Below the pieces are notes generated by a model that did no database searches, was not told the origin of the DNA, and was given only the letters and a program-made list of their open reading frames with translations. The position numbers and the translations under genes were made by a program. Shown piece after piece: positions 1 to 15,611 of a DNA stretch of 15,785 bases (its first letter is position 1; the number at the start of each line of letters is the position of its first letter). This stretch comes from Candidatus Pacearchaeota archaeon. GTDB taxonomy: Archaea; Nanobdellota; Nanobdellia; Pacearchaeales; GW2011-AR1. The stretch covers positions 1 to 15,785 of the forward strand of contig JASFEO010000018.1 of the NCBI GenBank assembly GCA_050124795.1, in the 5' to 3' direction.

Positions 1-56
1 AGCGAAAGACATTTATTTGAGAATGTTTTTATTACATTTCTCATGTATCTATGAGT

Positions 57-77
57 AAGTAGGGCTTTGCCCTACTT
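57..77. repeat. Perfect 9-bp inverted repeat (hairpin)
   Basis: AAGTAGGGC-TTT-GCCCTACTT in non-coding DNA. Confidence 0.7.
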
Positions 78-173
78 TAATATTTCTTTAAATTTTAGAA
101 TTACGAATTTTCATCGGAGATACTGTTTTGGTTTTTGTCGACAAGAGAATGGGCTTAAGGTTTTAAATATGTT

Positions 174-303
174 AATGGACCTGCCTGGCTCCTGACCTCG
201 CACGAAGTTTTTATTTTTTTATCCTGAATTTTTTTGAACTTCTACCACGAAGTCACTCGGTCGAACAAAAGAAATCTTCTTGAGTTTAGTCCGACGTAAC
301 GGC
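174..303 (-). ncRNA. Candidate structured ncRNA / tRNA-linked element, tRNA-Ala copy
   Basis: Shares GGACTA..AAGAT, CCGAG, GTGGTAG and CGTGC motifs and a covarying 7-bp helix with 4085..4190; ends in a copy of the tRNA-Ala 3' end (174..185 = 432..443). Confidence 0.65.
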
Positions 304-315
304 AAAAAATCAATG

Positions 316-341
316 AACCAATCTCCGAAGGAAGATTGGTT
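316..341 (-). terminator. Hairpin after the tRNA-3'-like sequence at 344..351, possible terminator or processing signal
   Basis: AACCAATCT (316..324) / AGATTGGTT (333..341), followed on the minus strand by a T6 tract. Confidence 0.45.
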
Positions 342-343
342 AT

Positions 344-399
344 ATGGACCTAGGAGTTCATCAAACACAAAATCCTAGGAATTAGTCCAACATAACGAC
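344..399 (-). repeat. Short version of the tRNA-Ala-linked element
   Basis: 382..399 matches 286..303 at 15/18; contains GTGTTTGA (T-loop-like); ends AGGTCCAT like tRNA-Ala. Confidence 0.6.
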
Positions 400-404
400 A
401 TTCG

Positions 405-427
405 AAAACGATGTCTAGAAGACATCG
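405..427 (-). terminator. Hairpin plus T4 directly after tRNA-Ala
   Basis: CGATGTCT (409..416) / AGACATCG (420..427), then TTTT on the minus strand. Confidence 0.5.
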
Positions 428-433
428 CGAGAA

Positions 434-505
434 TGGACCTGCCGTGAGTCGAACACGGGTCTCCTGAGTGCAAATCAGGTATCTTAGCCATTGGACAACA
501 GGCCC
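434..505 (-). tRNA. tRNA-Ala(UGC)
   Basis: Cloverleaf GGGCCTG/CAGGTCC-A with G3:U70, anticodon arm CCTGA-TT TGC AC-TCAGG, T-loop TTCGACT; no encoded CCA. Confidence 0.97.
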
Positions 506-549
506 CTTGTAAAAATAGACAATCTTTTAGTTTTTAAACTTTTACCGTT

Positions 550-840
550 TTAGATATTAGAATAAATTCCCTCTAGGAATGATTTAAGAAAAGGCGTTTC
601 TTCTCTAAAATAATCACAAGGCAAATCAGGATTGTTTCTCGCCTCTTTTTCAAATCTCTCTTTAGTAATGGGCACATATCCCCTTCCAACAAAAAAGGCA
701 TGCCCAGTTATAGAAGTAGTTAATGCTAATTTTGTAAGTTCACTTTTATCTTCAAGAATTCCTTGGTAAAAATATCCCAGACATTCCAGAGCATTTTGTC
801 TTTCTTTAACTTTTTTCAGAAAGTCTTTTTCTTCTGGCAT
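550..840 (-). CDS. Hypothetical protein (~96 aa)
   Basis: ORF; ATG at 840 preferred because a TATA-like TTTTTAAA lies ~25 nt upstream. Confidence 0.65.
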   Translation of the reverse strand: MPEEKDFLKKVKERQNALECLGYFYQGILEDKSELTKLALTTSITGHAFFVGRGYVPITKERFEKEARNNPDLPCDYFREETPFLKSFLEGIYSNI

Positions 841-891
841 AATCCAAATTAACAATTAGTGTTTAAAAATATTTATGTGGTGAGTTGAGAA

Positions 892-1120
892 TTATTTTGG
901 TAATCTTTCAATGTTAATTATAGAATCTAAAGATATTCTAGCTAATTTTCCCTTATCAGACATAATTACATATTCTTCGATAAATGAAGAAGTTTCATCT
1001 CTAAATTCTAAATAATTTCCTTCTATTTCCTTTTTTTTTATTAAGAGCAGGAATTTCATGGTTAACTTTAATTCTTTCTCCCTTCCTTAATTTCAATTTT
1101 TCAAGTTCTTTGTATTCCAT
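892..1120 (-). pseudogene. Small hypothetical gene (~75 aa) frameshifted at an A9 tract
   Basis: MEYKELEKLKLRKGERIKVNHEIPALNKK from 1120 joins KEIEGNYLEF...SIINIERLPK* (stop 892) if one A of 1031..1039 is removed. Confidence 0.55.
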
Positions 1121-1136
1121 TTCTTTAGAAACCTCT

Positions 1137-1160
1137 TTAATTAGAATGCAAGTGAAAGCT
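1137..1160 (-). other. 3' strand of the 16S pre-rRNA processing stem
   Basis: 1137..1148 is complementary to 2895..2906 (12 bp); 1152..1160 is complementary to 2839..2847 (9 bp). Confidence 0.75.
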
Positions 1161-1220
1161 TTAATCTCGCTGTAGAGTTATAATAATTTTTAATTTTATT
1201 TTAGTTCATAAAATTAAATT

Positions 1221-2660
1221 AGGAGGTGATCCATCTGCAGGTTCCCCTACAGATACCTTGTGACGACTTAACCTACCTTGTCTACCCAAAGTTTTCCCCG
1301 AAGGTTTCACCATAAATAAACTTGGTTGGTTTGACGGGCAGTGTGTGCAAGAGACAGTGACTTATTCACCGTTCGCTGATAACAAACGATTACTACGGAT
1401 TCCAGCGTCACGAGGCTGAGTTACAAACCTCGATCTGGACTGAGACGAACTTTAAGGGGTTGGCTCCACCTTTCGGTGTTGCATCCCGTTGTATTCGCCA
1501 TTGACGCGCGCGTGTAGCCCAGGGTATTCGGGACGTACCACCTGACGTAGCCCACACTTTCATCCTCGTTACCAAGGCAATCTCACTATAGTTCAAATAG
1601 TAAATAGTGATGTGGGTCTCGCCTGTTACCTGATTTAACAGGTCACTTCACAGCACAGGCTGACGTCGGCCATGCATCTCCTCTCAGCGTGTCAGGTAAG
1701 CCCTTTAGACTGACCTTCATCCTGCTGTCGGTCCTGGTGAGGTTCGCCCTGTAAGATCGCATTGAACCGCACGCGTCACCCGTTGTAGTGTCTCCCCGCC
1801 AATTCCTTTAAGTTTCGGCCTTGCGACTATACTTCCCAGGTAGCACACTCTTCGGCTTCCCTACAGCACTAATACCTCCCGAAGAGGTACTAATGTTTAG
1901 TGTGCAGTGTTTACTGCCAGGACTACACGGGTATCTAATCCGTTTTGCGCCCCTGGCCTTCATCCCTTACTGTCAGAACTGTCCTCGTAAGATGCCTTCG
2001 CTATTGTGAGTCCGAATAAGATCAGAGCATTTTACTACTACTTTATTCGTACTTCTTACGTCTTCCAGTCTCTAGTTTGGCAGTACTTCCTGCCCGCTTT
2101 GCACTTAAGATACAAAATTTCACAGGAAACTTAACAAACAAGCTACGGATGTTTTAGACCCAATAAAAATGGCTGCGACTTGGACCGCGAGTATTACCGC
2201 GGCGGCTGGCACTCGTCTTACCCAGTCCTTATTCGCCAAACTTTTTACATTTGGCAAAAGTCTTTCGAATGAAAAACACTCTGGCTCAATCTGTCATACT
2301 TTCGTACATTGCAGAATATTCCTAACTGCTGCACCCCGTGGGGCTGGGAATAGTGTCTCAGATTCCCTCTCAGGGCCTCTTCGCTAAAAGCCCTTACAGA
2401 TCACCGGCTTGGTGGGCCATTACCCCGCCAACAACCTAATCCGGCGCAACCTCATCCTTGAGCACGAGTTTGGGAGATAAGTCATTCCAGGGCAAATCTC
2501 CTATCAGGTTTTAGACACAGTTTCCCGTGCTTATCCCTGACTCAAGGGTAGATTAGTTACGTGTTACTGAGCAGTTCGCTTACCTCTATTACTAAAGATA
2601 AAACTTGCATGTCTAAGCGCAAACCAGAGAGCCGCAGCCGCCAGCAGGATCAACTGGATT
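1221..2660 (-). rRNA. rrs: 16S rRNA (archaeal, DPANN-like)
   Basis: 5' AATCCAGTTGATCCTGC, GTGCCAGCCGCCGCGGTAA, ATTAGATACCC, AAACTTAAAGGAATTGGCGGG, 3' GGATCACCTCCT; ~1440 nt. Confidence 0.99.
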
Positions 2661-2838
2661 TAACAATTTCATAAATATTTATTTAATTAATATAAAAATC
2701 TCCATTGCGCAATTTGTTATATGTAAGACAAACAAATCACTTCACACAATTCCTAACTATCGGCTACTAACCATAATTGGTTGACTACAACTTGATGAAT
2801 TTCTTGATTATGAATAAAAAAGAAATTTCCACGATACT

Positions 2839-2906
2839 AGCTTTCACGTACATCATACCTTACGGCCATAAGTTTTAGCTTTTATTAAGGCAATCATTCT
2901 AATTAA
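2839..2906 (-). other. 5' strand of the 16S pre-rRNA processing stem
   Basis: Two blocks complementary to the 16S trailer 1137..1160, in nested order. Confidence 0.7.
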
Positions 2907-2926
2907 TAAAATTAGCAAATTTTAAG

Positions 2927-2943
2927 TATATAAATGTTTCTAC
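2927..2943 (-). promoter_or_regulatory. 16S promoter (BRE + TATA box)
   Basis: GTAGAAACA-TTTATATA just upstream of the leader stem. Confidence 0.7.
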
Positions 2944-3119
2944 GGGTTTCGTCGGAGGAAAAGATTGAAAAGTTGAGTTTGCCTACTAAGAGATTAAATC
3001 AAATCTCGATACATTTAATCAAGTCCCAACAAAACACTCTCAAAACTTTTAGGAGAAGTAATTGAATTAATCTAATTTGTTTTCACACCATAAAACTCAT
3101 ACCGAAATCAAAAAACTTT

Positions 3120-3290
3120 TCAGGAGATTTGCAAATAATTTATTTTTTTCCTAACTAAATAAACAATCAAAAAAATAAAAAATAAAATTACTCCGAAGTA
3201 AATAAAAAAATTCTCTTCAGGCTCTGGAAAAAAATAAAGAATAATCACGCCGATAACCACAACAAAAGGAATTAAGTTTTTTTGTTTCAT
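3120..3290 (-). CDS. Small membrane protein (56 aa, two TM segments), not in the ORF track
   Basis: MKQKNLIPFVVVIGVIILYFFPEPEENFFIYFGVILFFIFLIVYLVRKKINYLQIS; ATG directly abuts the DUF202 stop. Confidence 0.6.
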   Translation of the reverse strand: MKQKNLIPFVVVIGVIILYFFPEPEENFFIYFGVILFFIFLIVYLVRKKINYLQIS

Positions 3291-3554
3291 TTAATATTTT
3301 AGAATTTTCTTTTTCCTTGTTGAATGATAAATTAATCCCACCGCAACGAGGACAAAACTAAGAATAATTGCGCCAAACCCGGCATAAATTGATTTTGCAC
3401 TCTCGCCAAAAAGTTTTATCATTGCAATTCCAAGGACAAATGCAGCAAACCCTGTTCTGAGGTAAGCCAAAGTATTTCTCTCATTCGCGAGAATTGTCCT
3501 TTCCTGCGCCAGCTTATGATGGCTTAAAAGTTTTTTTAAAATATGTTTTTCCAT
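3291..3554 (-). CDS. DUF202/YidH-family membrane protein
   Basis: LAQERTILANERNTLAYLRTG motif followed by two TM helices. Confidence 0.88.
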   Translation of the reverse strand: MEKHILKKLLSHHKLAQERTILANERNTLAYLRTGFAAFVLGIAMIKLFGESAKSIYAGFGAIILSFVLVAVGLIYHSTRKKKILKY

Positions 3555-3645
3555 TTTCCTCTTTTAATAATTTATAAAAGAATCTTTAGTTTAAAAAAAT
3601 TTTGGAAAGATTATAATATCAATAAACTATTGATGGCACACAATT

Positions 3646-3957
3646 TCAGGAAAAGTCTTTTTCACTAGCGATTTTTTCTACCTCTTTCACCAATAGTTCT
3701 TGTCCTTCAGAACCAACAACAATTTCCAATCTCCTAGATTTTCCTTTTTCCATTGGTTCAACTCTAAATGCATAAAAATAATCCTCAGAAGTTACTACTC
3801 CATATTCTTGTTCTCTCCAATCAGGTCTTAATCTTCCTTCCTCAAGTGGACTCCTTATAACTGCATCCCCCTGCATCAAGATGTAATTAATCCCATGAAA
3901 TCTTATATTTTCAAAGGACTCATCATCAGAGGAAATCGCTAACTTTTTGTATTTCAT
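3646..3957 (-). CDS. Hypothetical protein (103 aa)
   Basis: ATG ORF with an upstream TTTAAA TATA box. Confidence 0.7.
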   Translation of the reverse strand: MKYKKLAISSDDESFENIRFHGINYILMQGDAVIRSPLEEGRLRPDWREQEYGVVTSEDYFYAFRVEPMEKGKSRRLEIVVGSEGQELLVKEVEKIASEKDFS

Positions 3958-4027
3958 AATTTCGTAATTAAAAATTACTTTTTAAATGTTTGTAGACAGA
4001 AAATATAGCTAAAACACAAAAGTATTT

Positions 4028-4083
4028 ATTCGCTTCGCTCTCGGCAAAGCCGAATACAAAACCCTATCTGAAGCTGTTTTGCA
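4028..4083 (-). other. Hairpins downstream of the tRNA-Val-linked element
   Basis: TCGGC-TTT-GCCGA and TGCAAAAC...GTTTTGTA on the minus strand. Confidence 0.4.
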
Positions 4084-4084
4084 T

Positions 4085-4190
4085 AATGGTCCATATCCCC
4101 CAAGCCTGCACGCAACTTTATGGGTTATTGTTACTACCACAGACTTGCTCGGAATTGAAGGAACATCTTATAGTGTCTAGTCCTATATCC
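4085..4190 (-). ncRNA. Candidate structured ncRNA / tRNA-linked element, tRNA-Val copy
   Basis: Same motifs and helix as 174..303; ends in TATGGACCA (4087..4095), which equals the tRNA-Val 3' end (4228..4236). Confidence 0.65.
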
Positions 4191-4227
4191 TCTACAAATA
4201 AATAATCTTGCTCTGTAATATTATAAG

Positions 4228-4299
4228 TGGTCCATAGAGGAATTGAACCTCTGTCTACTCGGTGTAAACGAGTCGTCTTAGCCATTGGACTAATGGACC
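4228..4299 (-). tRNA. tRNA-Val(UAC)
   Basis: Cloverleaf GGTCCAT/ATGGACC-A, ACTCG-TT TAC AC-CGAGT, AGAGG-TTCAATT-CCTCT. Confidence 0.97.
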
Positions 4300-8510: not shown

Positions 8511-8558
8511 GATTTTTTGATTAAATAATTTTTGAATTTAACCGAGTGAGAATCTTGG

Positions 8559-8586
8559 AAAAATAAAACAGGGCGTAAAGCCCTGT
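8559..8586 (-). terminator. Hairpin plus T-tract after tRNA-Tyr
   Basis: ACAGGGC-TTTAC-GCCCTGT followed by TTTATTTTT. Confidence 0.6.
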
Positions 8587-8590
8587 GTGA

Positions 8591-8731
8591 TCCCCCCACC
8601 AAGATTCGAACTTGGGATCTCCCGGGTGCTGCTTGCAACCGAACTGGCTTTTAGGGTTTCATAGTTATCATGATTGAATCTCCACCTTAGTAATCTACAG
8701 CCAGGCGCTCTAACCACTGAGCTATGGAGGG
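8591..8731 (-). tRNA. tRNA-Tyr(GUA) with a 68-nt intron at 37/38 (8627..8694)
   Basis: C1:G72 acceptor CCCTCCA/TGGGGGG-A; CCTGG-CT GTA G|intron|C-CCGGG; BHB central helix CUGU/GCAG. Confidence 0.93.
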
Positions 8732-8832
8732 ATTATATAAACTAAATTTCTATCTTTTTAAGATTTGCCATTTCCCAAAAAACATATTCTCAATCTCAAC
8801 AATCTTTAAATACAATAAATATCCAATAAAAA

Positions 8833-13116: not shown

Positions 13117-13588
13117 TTATTTCATTCTCTCCTTCAACTTTTTAATCCTATCCCTCAATTTAATTGCCTTTTCAAATTCTAAATTCTCACTTGCTTCAAG
13201 CATATCCTGTTCGAGTTCAATAATTAAATTAGGAATCTCTGCTTTGGGAATTGACTTTGTGTCGCTAATTTCAACTGTCTTTTCTTTAATTGGTTTTATA
13301 ATTGTCTTCGGAGTTATATTGTGCGCTTTATTGTATGCAATCTGAATCTCTCTTCTTCTCTTGGTTTCTTCAACTGCAGTTTTTATTGAATCAGTAATTG
13401 TATCTGCATAAAGTATAACACGAGAATTTGCATTTCTTGCAGCTCTGCCAATTGTCTGAATTAAACTTTTGTCATTACGTAAAAATCCTTCTTTGTCAGC
13501 ATCAAGTATTCCAACAAAACCAACTTCAGGAATGTCTAAACCTTCACGCAATAAATTAATTCCAACCAACACATCAAACTTCCCTAAT
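13117..13588 (-). pseudogene. uvrB: uvrB 3' fragment (end of helicase domain plus UVR domain)
   Basis: [54 protein letters not shown]; N-terminal part absent. Confidence 0.9.
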
Positions 13589-13849
13589 TGTTACTTCTTT
13601 ATTTTTATCTAATTTTTTAATAAATTTATCATAACTTTTCTTTAAAGAAACCTCTTCTTTTTTAGGGGGCTGGCTTATGAATGGCGGAGCTGTATAAAAG
13701 AAAACATGTTTGCAATGCATTTTTTGTTTTTTAGAAATATTCCTTGAAAACTGCAATTTAGAATACTTGATGTATCTTCCATTTCCAAAATATTTATTTA
13801 ACTTTGACAAAAATCCGTCATCAATAAACACAAGTGTTTCTTTAATCAT
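13574..13849 (-). pseudogene. NYN-domain (LabA/PIN-like) nuclease, 5' fragment
   Basis: LVFIDDGFL..FFYTAPP..YDKFIKKL; lacks the C-terminal QKGVD and SGDxD motifs; GGAGGGG SD. Confidence 0.75.
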
Positions 13850-13870
13850 AATCCCCTCCAAAGAATTTTA

Positions 13871-13910
13871 AGAAAAAATCATCCAGCGACCCCGTAGGAT
13901 CACTGGGGAT
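13871..13910 (-). promoter_or_regulatory. Leader hairpin with UACG tetraloop and T6 tract upstream of the NYN gene
   Basis: CCAGTGATCC-TACG-GGGTCGCTGG (13883..13906), then ATGATTTTTT. Confidence 0.65.
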
Positions 13911-14018
13911 CATATAGTAAAAATTAATACGCGGAAGTTTATAAATTTTTTCATTAATTAATTTTCTAATCTTAATCATCTTTTCCTCTCAACATTTTTA
14001 AGTTTAAACTGCGAAGCA

Positions 14019-14324
14019 TTACTTTCCACACCCCTTGCAATTTCCAGAGCAAAAAGTTTTTGCATGTTTGTCAATTATTCTTAAAATTGGTAAAATTGTT
14101 TTTTTATTTAATGAATAAATTCTTTCCTTTCCCTTTTGTTTTACAACAACAATATTGCAATTCCTTAAAGAAGCCAGTGCATGGGATAATTTGCTTTGTT
14201 CAACATTCAACTCTTTAACAAGTTCTGAAACATTTTTTTGTTTTTCTTTTAATGATGAAACAATTTGAATTCTAAGTGGATTTGCAAGGTTAGTAAAGAA
14301 AACATGGTATGTATTCGATTTCAT
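14019..14324 (-). CDS. ArsR/SmtB-family regulator with a C-terminal Cys cluster
   Basis: FTNLANPLRIQIV..VSELV..EQSKLSHALASL..GKERIYSL; CSGNCKGC tail. Confidence 0.92.
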   Translation of the reverse strand: MKSNTYHVFFTNLANPLRIQIVSSLKEKQKNVSELVKELNVEQSKLSHALASLRNCNIVVVKQKGKERIYSLNKKTILPILRIIDKHAKTFCSGNCKGCGK

Positions 14325-14389
14325 ATGAAAATAATTTCATAAAAGTATTTAAATCTTTTTATTAAAATAAAAATAAAAGAAAAAGTTAC

Positions 14390-14521
14390 TCAAGTTCTGT
14401 ATGCAACCTCTTTTGACAGGACTCTTATGCAATAGTCCAGATTTCGAAGTTTTGCTGCAAGCGAACTTTTTGCTCTCTGTGCTTCAGAGAGTTCAACCAT
14501 AAGCTGCTCAACTGACTCCAT
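14390..14521 (-). CDS. Small coiled-coil-like protein (43 aa), not in the ORF track
   Basis: MESVEQLMVELSEAQRAKSSLAAKLRNLDYCIRVLSKEVAYRT; TTATATAA ~25 nt upstream. Confidence 0.6.
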   Translation of the reverse strand: MESVEQLMVELSEAQRAKSSLAAKLRNLDYCIRVLSKEVAYRT

Positions 14522-14530
14522 CTTAATATT

Positions 14531-14616
14531 ATGTATATACACTTATTTATATAACTCTACTTTAACTTGAAAATGAAAATCCCAGTTACTTAAAAATTAA
14601 GTAACATGTATATACA
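14531..14616. promoter_or_regulatory. Operator-like palindrome cluster
   Basis: ATGTATATACA at 14531 and 14606; GTTACTTAA-AAA-TTAAGTAAC at 14585..14605. Confidence 0.55.
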
Positions 14617-14624
14617 ATGGGTTG

Positions 14625-15611
14625 TTATAACTCTATTTCATATCTTCTTATTTTTTCTGCAAGAGTGGTTCTTATTATCCCCAATTGTTTTGCTGCCTTA
14701 GTTTTATTTGTCTTTCCATTTTCATCACGGCTATTATTTAATGCCTCTTTTATTAATTCAATTTCGATTGAGGTTAAAGTTTCAGGGAGAGTTATCCCCC
14801 CACCAATATTTGGTGTTCCATTAATTTTTTTGGGGTTAATGATTTTTTTTGAAGAATATTCCCTCATGATAATTCCTTCTTTTGGTTTAAGAAATTTTAA
14901 TTCTTCCTCAACTACAAATCTTTCAATTGTTCTTTTTAATTCACGAATATTCCCCGGCCAGTCCCAATTCGTGAGTCTAGAAATATCCACATGATTTAGT
15001 TCAAGATTCTTTTTACATACTTCATTGAACTTTTTTAAAAAATGGTTAGAAAGTACGGGGATATCTTCTTTCCTATCTCTTAACGCCGGGAGTTCAATTG
15101 GGTATTTAAACCTGTACCAAAATTCCAGAGGCATTTCCCCTGAATTTGAACCCGCAGCAATAATTCTCACATCAACTTTTGTCTCTTTGTTATCACCTAC
15201 CTTAAGAAACAAACCATAATCCACGACTCTTAGCAATTTACTGAGATATTCTTCTGGGAGTTTTGTTATTTCATCTAGAAATAAAGTTCCTTTGTTTGCT
15301 ATTTCAAAGTATCCTTGTTTGTTGTAAGTCGCCCCTGTGAATGCACCTTTTTTGTGCCCGAAAAGTTCGCTCTCTATTAGTGTCTTAGTAATTCCTGCGC
15401 AGTTTATGGTCAAAAAAGGCATGTCTTTTCTCAAGCTATTTTGATAAATATAATTTGCCAGAACTTCTTTTCCTGTTCCGGTTTCTCCTGTTAATAAAAC
15501 AGACATATTTGTCTCTGCGATTCTTTTAAGATTTTTTTTTATTTGGGTAATTTCTGGGCTTTTTCCAATGAATTTATCGTATATCTCTAAATTATTTTTA
15601 AGTGTATTCAT
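14625..15611 (-). CDS. Sigma54-interaction (NtrC/PspF-like) AAA+ protein with Fis-type HTH and no sensor domain
   Basis: GETGTGKE Walker A, ESELFGHKKGAFTGA, LFLDEI Walker B, WPGNIREL, NKTKAAKQLGI.RTTL. Confidence 0.93.
   Translation of the reverse strand: MNTLKNNLEIYDKFIGKSPEITQIKKNLKRIAETNMSVLLTGETGTGKEVLANYIYQNSLRKDMPFLTINCAGITKTLIESELFGHKKGAFTGATYNKQGYFEIANKGTLFLDEITKLPEEYLSKLLRVVDYGLFLKVGDNKETKVDVRIIAAGSNSGEMPLEFWYRFKYPIELPALRDRKEDIPVLSNHFLKKFNEVCKKNLELNHVDISRLTNWDWPGNIRELKRTIERFVVEEELKFLKPKEGIIMREYSSKKIINPKKINGTPNIGGGITLPETLTSIEIELIKEALNNSRDENGKTNKTKAAKQLGIIRTTLAEKIRRYEIEL

Follow-up and report, generated by a model that had tools for sequence, protein, structure and literature searches.

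The DNA analysed here (the window) is a 15,785-nucleotide contig, C18, of a Candidatus Pacearchaeota archaeon (GenBank JASFEO010000018.1), from a 1.06-Mb genome of 32% GC that comprises 38 contigs and is 90% complete (90.3%). Along with an archaeal 16S rRNA gene (1221–2660, minus strand), it holds complete genes for tRNA-Ala(UGC) and tRNA-Val(UAC), and downstream of each stands a composite repeat in which a structured hairpin is framed by short pieces of the neighboring tRNA. An earlier note on this DNA, made from the letters alone, had offered two readings of these frames: a programmable two-part guide, conceptually like bridge or seek RNAs, or a structured insertion into a duplicated tRNA 3' end. 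Here, we describe the hairpin family to which both copies belong, relate its flanks to the genes beside them, and weigh what may have produced this arrangement.

Copies of tRNA segments at the Ala and Val loci

In plus-strand coordinates, the Ala repeat matches its tRNA at 260–267 = 448–455 (TGTTCGAC, as read on the tRNA strand) and at 176–185 = 434–443 (GGCAGGTCCA), and the Val repeat at 4151–4159 = 4239–4247 (TTCAATTCC) and at 4087–4095 = 4228–4236 (TATGGACCA). Inside the tRNAs the paired segments are separated by 4 nt (TCAC) in Ala and 2 nt (TC) in Val; matches and gaps alike are as the earlier note had given them. Both loci are described from here on along the minus strand, which is the tRNA-sense strand (Table 1). 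The best-supported account of the two flanks is that they are the halves of a partial, same-sense DNA copy of the tRNA 3' end, a T-arm copy (A') before the hairpin and an acceptor copy (B') after it. The hairpin would lie within this second copy, with four tRNA nucleotides lost at Ala and two at Val, and window positions 174–267 would form the 3' part of a composite repeat of ~250 nt that begins right after tRNA-Ala.

Table 1. Parts of the tRNA-linked repeats in the window.
Feature	Position	Strand	Basis
tRNA-Ala(UGC), complete, CCA not encoded; origin of the copied segments	434..505	(-)	ARAGORN; Rfam tRNA 56.4 bits
Terminator-like hairpin right after tRNA-Ala, then T-run; opens the composite repeat	409..427	(-)	sequence
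First tandem unit: GGACTAA start, different hairpin CCTAGGA..TCCTAGG, AGGTCCA end	345..388	(-)	
Second hairpin and T-run, between both Ala units	316..341	(-)	
5' module x, GGACTAAACTCAAGAAGATTTC, conserved, common to other type-1 copies	271..292	(-)	alignments
A', same-sense copy of tRNA-Ala T-stem/T-loop 52–59, TGTTCGAC	260..267	(-)	
Core hairpin I, 71 nt, Ala locus	189..259	(-)	covariance model match 67.7 bits, E 2.3e-17; covariation
3-nt linker (CCA on the tRNA strand) joining hairpin GGAG to the acceptor copy	186..188	(-)	
B', same-sense copy of tRNA-Ala 64–73, GGCAGGTCCA, no CCA after	176..185	(-)	
tRNA-Val(UAC), complete	4227/8..4299	(-)	ARAGORN; Rfam
Spacer and T-rich segment after tRNA-Val	4195..4226	(-)	conserved with tRNA-Asp element on contig C16
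TAGAGGA patch, complementary to tRNA-Val 59–65 and equally a copy of the T-stem 5' strand	4188..4194	(-)	
Module x of the Val/Asp subfamily, GGACTAGACACTATAAGATGT	4163..4183	(-)	alignments
A', tRNA-Val T-loop copy, TTCAATTC, then C	4152..4159	(-)	
Core hairpin I, Val locus; H1 4140–4147 with 4101–4108	4097..4151	(-)	covariance model match 61.1 bits
B', copy of tRNA-Val 65–73, TATGGACCA	4087..4095	(-)	
Third remnant, without core hairpin, downstream of intron-containing tRNA (8589–8732)	8523..8585	(-)	

The Ala repeat consists of two tandem units, the first of which ends in AGGTCCA, a 7-nt sense copy of the tRNA-Ala 3' end (tRNA 66–72). Hairpin and T-run segments comparable to those that border the units are kept between paralogous elements in alignment. 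When scored against every tRNA found by ARAGORN, the Ala A' reaches 8 with its own tRNA and at most 7 with the other 34, and the Ala B' reaches 12 against at most 7; the Val A' sequence TTCAATTC is also present in three other tRNAs. The Ala hairpin is built from CGAG, H1 (248–255 with 193–200), a UGGUA/GUG internal loop, H2 (GAAGUU/AACUUC), an A-rich loop, and GGAG, and the Val hairpin ends in GGGG in place of GGAG.

The third remnant is made up of a hairpin (8569–8585), a T-run, CCAAGATTC (8550–8558) and the x-like GGTTAAATTCAAAAA (8523–8543). The 9-nt CCAAGATTC is the reverse complement of GAATCTTGG, which belongs to the T-loop/T-stem of the tRNA at 8589–8732. This tRNA, on the minus strand, has a 68-nt intervening sequence and an uncertain isotype call, and ARAGORN finds it only with introns allowed.

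The hairpin family and its distribution

A pattern scan of the genome recovered 15 copies of the hairpin, and a covariance model built from those raised the count to 18. The consensus runs YGAG, an H1 of 8 bp, UGGUA, an H2 of 4–5 bp, a variable loop, the H2 return, GUG, the H1 return, and NGAG. The conserved helix posited in the earlier note is borne out by this alignment, with 96.4% of cells paired, changes on both sides in 10 of the 13 pairs, and none of 500 shuffles as high; slid controls drop to 29–46% paired. The 21 G-U cells fit the tRNA-sense strand only. A scan of the whole window against Rfam gave no match over the element at E ≤ 1, and at E ≤ 10 on positions 150–440 the sole match was a chance one on the other strand.

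Matches to the covariance model were found in 4/24 genomes of the same family and 0/16 from eight other families of the order in a first sample, and in 14/105 genomes of the family and 0/45 outside it in a second. In these samples the hairpin family was found in one archaeal family only, and since the relatives hold 1–5 copies each, the 18 copies in the present genome represent an expansion. In metagenome contigs the pattern scan returned 80 loci, and the covariance model confirmed 27 matches in 24 of them. Viral contigs gave 13 pattern matches, none confirmed by the model (one weak match of 63% GC was discarded), and no hairpin copy was found in the phage and plasmid collections. As judged from sequence, this is best described as a new, lineage-restricted repeat family. 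At one metagenomic locus (L152:2088–2264, minus strand), three hairpin copies follow one another directly in head-to-tail order, resembling an array of repetitive extragenic palindromic sequences (REP) or bacterial interspersed mosaic elements (BIME).

The strong covariation also speaks for a reading in which the hairpin belongs to a structured small RNA, such as an L7Ae-binding kink-turn (K-turn) RNA, derived from the tRNA 3' trailer, with the tRNA-like ends acting as processing signals or as a minihelix mimic and with the hairpin acting in cis on expression where it stands in a 5' untranslated region. Consistent with this, four copies lie 5–20 nt ahead of start codons, the tandem GA dinucleotides of the YGAG/NGAG feet are invariant on both sides of the hairpin, and in type-2 copies these feet show by inspection the canonical, textbook K-turn geometry. 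However, most type-1 copies, Ala and Val among them, have no K-turn flanks. Pairing of the C-stem across all copies is weakly enriched (85 pairs versus 76.6 ± 4.8, reached by 19/500 controls), and the Lys and Thr copies can form a 12-bp outer helix with a compensatory change (p about 0.03 each), but the helix lacks support in most copies (p > 0.05 in 11 of 14), and we rejected a minihelix or outer-helix model for the family, as it is supported for Lys and Thr only. The small-RNA reading further leaves a duplicated coding end at an ATPase gene (see below) unexplained and has no Rfam family match, and we regard it as improbable. Inspection of the alignments ruled out reading the motifs as C/D box, H/ACA, hammerhead or loop-E, and minimum free energy folds of whole elements differ between copies.

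Duplicated gene ends and how they may have arisen

The 18 copies concentrate at the 3' ends of tRNA genes: 14 lie 25–250 nt downstream of one, every one in tRNA orientation (Leu-UAA, Lys-UUU, Pro, Ser-GCU, Arg-UCG, Gly-UCC, Cys, Asp, Val, Ala, Ile, Glu-CUC, Thr and a second Leu). One copy constitutes a 63-nt intron at position 37/38, within the tRNA-Gln(CUG) anticodon loop, and a metagenomic tRNA-Gln ortholog has the same hairpin intron. Two copies are inside a reverse-transcriptase gene, adjoining an RT-16 RNA motif, and one stands directly before a rhodanese-like open reading frame (ORF).

We scored the flanks of each tRNA-linked copy (n = 14) against all 35 ARAGORN tRNAs. For the 3' flank, the local tRNA was the unique best match in 10 copies, tied for the top score in 2 and was outscored in the other 2 (Cys, Asp), whereas for the T-loop flank it was the unique best in just 2 (Ala, Cys), tied in 8 and not best in 4. 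The covariation between element and cognate tRNA that the earlier note had proposed as a check appears in the acceptor segment; the T-loop segment is only weakly tRNA-specific. The type-2 elements have GGTTCGA as an invariant component: in genome G154, one tRNA-Gly has GGGTCCGACT and its element GGGTTCGA. An exact repeat of at least 9 nt from the last 16 nt of the tRNA occurs within 400 nt downstream of 10 of the 35 tRNAs, and in all 10 a hairpin copy (one of them truncated) lies in between; the upstream control gave at most 8 nt.

The flanks run in the sense of the tRNA. None of them has a CCA after it, for which reason a retro-copy of mature tRNA was rejected. The repeats also run past the tRNA: at tRNA-Arg(UCG) 7 of 20 repeated nucleotides lie beyond the gene, and in the metagenomic loci L116 (tRNA-Leu) and L149 (tRNA-Ser) the repeat takes in another 40 and about 60 nt, reaching through the hairpin/T-run flank. 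Repeat length ranges from 9 to about 70 nt. The split point falls inside the T-loop in Lys, Ser and Thr, where the T-stem 5' strand is kept; Glu is split at 61/62, and the remaining copies are split within the T-stem 3' strand. Tandem units that each end in a gene 3' end occur at tRNA-Ala and in genome G160; such arrays are the expected outcome of repeated insertion at one site and therefore count for an insertion. Degenerate copies are found at Asp, Cys and Thr. Pair 2:71 is mismatched in the copies at Lys, Pro and Ser, and by inspection the changes in the Cys copy keep acceptor pairing as G-U.

A truncated copy after tRNA-Arg(CCU) (G000:C7:7191–7280; L006 1191–1280) has its loop cut at AATCC, where it joins a 16-nt stretch identical to the tRNA 3' end. 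On sequence grounds it looks as though the loop motif AUAAUCC had recombined with the T-loop.

The same layout recurs at a protein gene. In a HerA-like ATPase gene, the end (...TGGCAYGG/GGNGAR...stop, the slash marking the junction) is followed by a 10–20-nt spacer reverse-complementary to the uninterrupted junction, then by a copy of GGCAYGG, a hairpin, and the last ~13 codons once more, closed by a stop codon. The hairpin is either I or an unrelated stem, with YGAG/NGAR feet in both cases. We found this layout in 4 of 30 orthologs examined, in two further genomes recovered with the covariance model and on one metagenomic contig; one genome has three to four tandem cassettes. The second copy keeps the frame and the stop, and the copies differ at 25 synonymous and 8 non-synonymous codons, plus 5 stop-to-stop changes (30:8 with those). 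The downstream copy is therefore coding sequence, now or until recently, or else copies another functional allele. These differences are not adenine-specific, ruling out A-to-N mutagenesis of the type made by diversity-generating retroelements (DGRs).

Taken together, the same-sense flanks, the absence of CCA, the run-on into flanking DNA and the parallel at a protein gene favor the second proposal of the earlier note. We put the chance at about one in two that these loci carry a DNA-level, target-derived duplication of a gene 3' end split by an insertion-type hairpin module. The module would be, or would have been, mobile, and would enter at, or next to, sites resembling hairpin loops close to gene 3' ends, through replication or recombination, with one gene end left uninterrupted. 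That intact upstream end would keep the tRNA functional, and the interrupted downstream copy would be the other half of the duplication, comparable to an attachment (att) site or target-site duplication; short-patch gene conversion or repeated re-insertion may then keep the copies alike. Most likely, then, the loci record gene-sparing insertion or recombination events. The genome's two solo Y1 (HUH) transposases and two tyrosine recombinases would be weak candidates for the enzyme.

Several observations weigh against this duplication-and-insertion account. That three patches of the element are specific to the local tRNA, and track it, is not accounted for by plain insertion with target duplication. 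The synonymous bias between the ATPase copies is unlike a dead relic and needs either a second functional allele as source or the use of both copies, and the mismatches to the tRNA in several copies fit decay as well as any function. There is also no linked partner enzyme. The window ORFs include no recombinase, in agreement with the earlier note, and both tyrosine recombinases are on other contigs; no I-like hairpin lies beside the Y1 genes, and across genomes no clear association emerged, Y1 being present in 5/14 hairpin-positive genomes versus 26/105 in the family. Y1 does occur in 4/5 genomes with at least three copies, a grouping chosen after seeing the data. A reverse transcriptase was rejected as partner, with 8/14 hairpin-positive versus 45/105 family genomes encoding one. 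Finally, a 26-nt stretch joining acceptor copy and flank, used as a probe for an empty site, had 0 matches in metagenome contigs, and metagenome, viral, phage and plasmid sequences yielded no empty site, excision product or autonomous copy.

In the paralog pairs Val/Asp, Lys/Thr, Pro/Ile, Leu/Cys and Arg/Leu, the spacer, module x and hairpin are common to both members, and the tRNA-derived patches differ. Three patches are specific for the local tRNA, namely A', B' and an antisense patch that is the reverse complement of the 3' half of the T-loop and the 3' strand of the T-stem. The longest antisense matches sum to 89, versus a shuffle mean of 65.9 and a maximum of 78 (0/500 shuffles reach 89), although the antisense match alone is not significant at Ala (80/500) or Val (60/500). 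At tRNA-Lys and tRNA-Leu loci of different organisms, the patches track each organism's own tRNA. Repeated re-copying, short-patch gene conversion or a function could each account for such rewriting.

These patches also speak for a programmable guide, in which patches of a structured RNA or single-stranded DNA would pair with both opened strands of the tRNA gene, the sense patches with the template strand and the antisense patch with the coding strand, to direct recombination or homing. Interleaving of three locus-specific patches with conserved modules, antisense enrichment, tracking in orthologous loci, and an ATPase spacer complementary to the uninterrupted junction would all fit such pairing, and because of the antisense patch and the locus-specific rewriting the guide keeps some probability. 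Direct support for a bridge- or seek-like guide is nonetheless missing: PF01548, the IS110-type DEDD recombinase, has 0 matches in the 90.3%-complete genome, the copies are solitary and outside any larger mobile element, and neither reverse transcriptases nor, clearly, Y1 transposases are associated with them. The T-loop patch is constant in type-2 copies, and the 3' patch extends 7 to ~60 nt into non-tRNA flank and, at the ATPase gene, over 13 codons with synonymous differences; neither is expected of a guide, which would conserve nucleotides, not codons. We give it a slim chance. A further version, in which the three rewritable patches of a self-targeting, nucleic-acid-guided insertion module pair with both opened strands, place the hairpin and spare the gene, so that the loci would be caught intermediates of tRNA-intron arrival, is likewise doubtful; under it, a single recombination between T-loop and T-loop copy would turn the hairpin into a T-arm intron.

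The tRNA-Gln copy raises the further possibility that the duplicated ends are spare or alternative 3' exons, each a second, intron-bearing 3' end that the archaeal splicing endonuclease and RtcB ligase would join, in cis or in trans, to the remaining tRNA or mRNA body, in the manner of split or multi-intron tRNA genes. EndA is encoded in the genome, and among 49 distinct copies scanned for the archaeal bulge-helix-bulge (BHB) splicing motif in its hBHBh' form, the tRNA-Gln copy alone scored 10/10 (p about 0.01; AGA-CTCT-[GGT]-CGA with TCG-GGAG-[ATA]-TCT). The same hairpin is a true BHB intron there and in the metagenomic ortholog. The other 48 copies were no better than shuffled flanks (Ala 9/10, p 0.34; Val 9/10, p 0.53). 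With a BHB at tRNA-Gln only, the hairpin can therefore reside in an intron and is not itself the splicing signal. Spare exons would further account for the in-frame second ATPase end with its stop, for the hairpin/T-run flank copies that the second copies in L116 and L149 have as their own, and for the preserved acceptor pairing in the Cys copy; the coding-type conservation of the ATPase copy is the reason this reading retains some probability. Against it stand the 2:71 mismatches in Lys, Pro and Ser and the degenerate Asp and Thr copies, and a spliced product would be what the intact upstream gene already encodes: the element interrupts the sole functional gene copy at tRNA-Gln only, and complete tRNA-Ala and tRNA-Val genes stand upstream of theirs. 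On balance, spare exons are unlikely. Two RNA runs that share words with the window cover the 16S gene only (1219–2700), with no transcript of the element seen in them, and the joints listed from them are matches to paralogs or other organisms with short sides.

Degeneration of the Asp, Cys and Thr copies, the hairpin cut at AATCC after tRNA-Arg(CCU), and the window remnant that lacks a hairpin would also suit decaying pseudogene fragments of tandem tRNA duplications, hit independently by a repeat with no common mechanism. The order of parts, however, recurs at no fewer than 14 tRNAs in one genome, in other genera and at a protein gene, and since independent accidents would not repeat the same order, we consider this very unlikely.

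Several further observations concern hairpins in reading frames and the surroundings of the window loci. The reverse-transcriptase gene interrupted by the hairpin belongs to a DGR-like cassette present twice in the genome, at G000:C2:1–2500 (L001) and C2:37000–39500 (L002), with an ORF whose C-terminus resembles a variable repeat, an RT-16 motif match of 94.8 bits, and a template-like repeat that differs by eye from the variable repeat mostly at A positions. The inserted hairpin has a (CT)n loop that differs by 2 nt between cassettes: the insertion is in frame and open in the second copy, and the length difference breaks the frame in the first. Many reverse-transcriptase genes across the order have two adjacent Pfam RVT_1 matches, with a break near model position 105–115 spanned by other frames or small gaps (for example G025:C14, G104:C6, G125:C2 and G045:C4); the hairpin of G000 sits at this same point, which may be a hotspot where frameshifts or insertions recur. 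Hairpins also lie within apparently intact ORFs at G108:C3:42456–42514 (L060) and in G112:C49 (L050), the former reading as a 60-nt in-frame insertion without stops in a translation-factor-like gene. The tRNA-Thr(UGU) at G000:C4:64615–64724 has an apparent non-canonical intervening sequence at the D-arm/position 26, with two conflicting ARAGORN calls.

Within the window, a 101-aa ORF without Pfam match (550–855, minus strand) separates the 16S gene from tRNA-Ala, thereby breaking the usual 16S-tRNAAla-23S linkage. ORFs at 13117–15611 (minus strand) encode bacterial-type domains, namely a C-terminal fragment of UvrB, plus a sigma-54 interaction domain accompanied by a Fis-type helix-turn-helix. 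They are odd for an archaeal contig and could reflect horizontal transfer or chimeric assembly (contamination estimate 4%).

Relation to known systems

We found no description in the literature of a duplicated gene end split by a hairpin. For annotation, these flanks resemble a guide RNA or a tRNA fragment, yet they are not a tRNA and fit no known RNA family; should the patches be true functional guides, the element would be a new kind of programmable element. A 2026 preprint states that the arrival route of archaeal tRNA introns "remains open". The family unites, in one lineage, a true tRNA intron, ORF insertions and recurrent hairpin-split duplicated gene ends, and therefore offers concrete loci for following intron gain, loss and conversion.

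The closest matches to individual parts of the element come from different systems. Bridge RNAs carry short target-matching segments on both sides of a structured helix, and like IS110 bridge RNAs and IS1111 seekRNAs the present element has target matches, sense and antisense, flanking a helix. Here, by contrast, no DEDD recombinase was found and there is no element body, and each copy adjoins its own target; bridge and seekRNA guide segments of ~4–9 nt are complementary to target and donor, whereas the segments here are same-sense and reach 17 to ~70 nt in other loci. REP and BIME sequences are short, imperfect, strand-specific hairpins with conserved feet that occur at gene 3' ends and in head-to-tail arrays. 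The strand-specific imperfect hairpin with feet, the array at L152 and the two solo Y1 genes recall REP/RAYT and IS200/IS605 systems, which are not known to duplicate long target stretches; here, no I-like hairpin flanks the Y1 genes, and co-occurrence with Y1 is weak. Miniature inverted-repeat transposable elements were rejected as a model, since by inspection the paralog alignments show no terminal inverted repeats and repeat length varies.

Among RNAs, the tandem GA feet, tRNA linkage and overlap with ORF 3' ends are shared with L7Ae K-turn RNAs (C/D, H/ACA and Pyrobaculum sRNAs); the tRNA-gene linkage and ORF 3'-end overlap of tRNA-linked Pyrobaculum sRNAs are given in PMC6009581. The present element differs in having no C/D or ACA box and no pseudouridylation pocket, and in flanks that are sense to the tRNA. 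A split-tRNA 3' half was ruled out, because the cognate tRNAs are complete and the element has no anticodon-arm sequence. The tRNA-Gln copy is like archaeal BHB tRNA introns, with its canonical 37/38 position and perfect hBHBh' motif. Archaeal introns in the T-loop and T-stem are known, and other copies sit at such positions. Unlike these introns, 48 of 49 distinct copies have no BHB, and the tRNA-linked ones interrupt a redundant fragment rather than the gene.

That integrating elements leave partial tRNA genes behind is known for archaea (PMC3293823; bioRxiv 10.1101/2022.07.05.498093). Archaeal attR-type fragments, like the copies here, are same-sense direct repeats of the tRNA 3' part downstream of an intact tRNA; arrays and protein-gene 3' ends can likewise serve as targets. 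Prophages that supply a replacement 3' end for icd provide a parallel to the latter. In contrast to integrating elements, what lies between the repeats here is 25–250 nt of non-coding DNA with no integrase-bearing element or remnant, and the downstream repeat is itself split by a conserved hairpin, has an extra antisense patch and uses one scaffold for at least 14 tRNAs.

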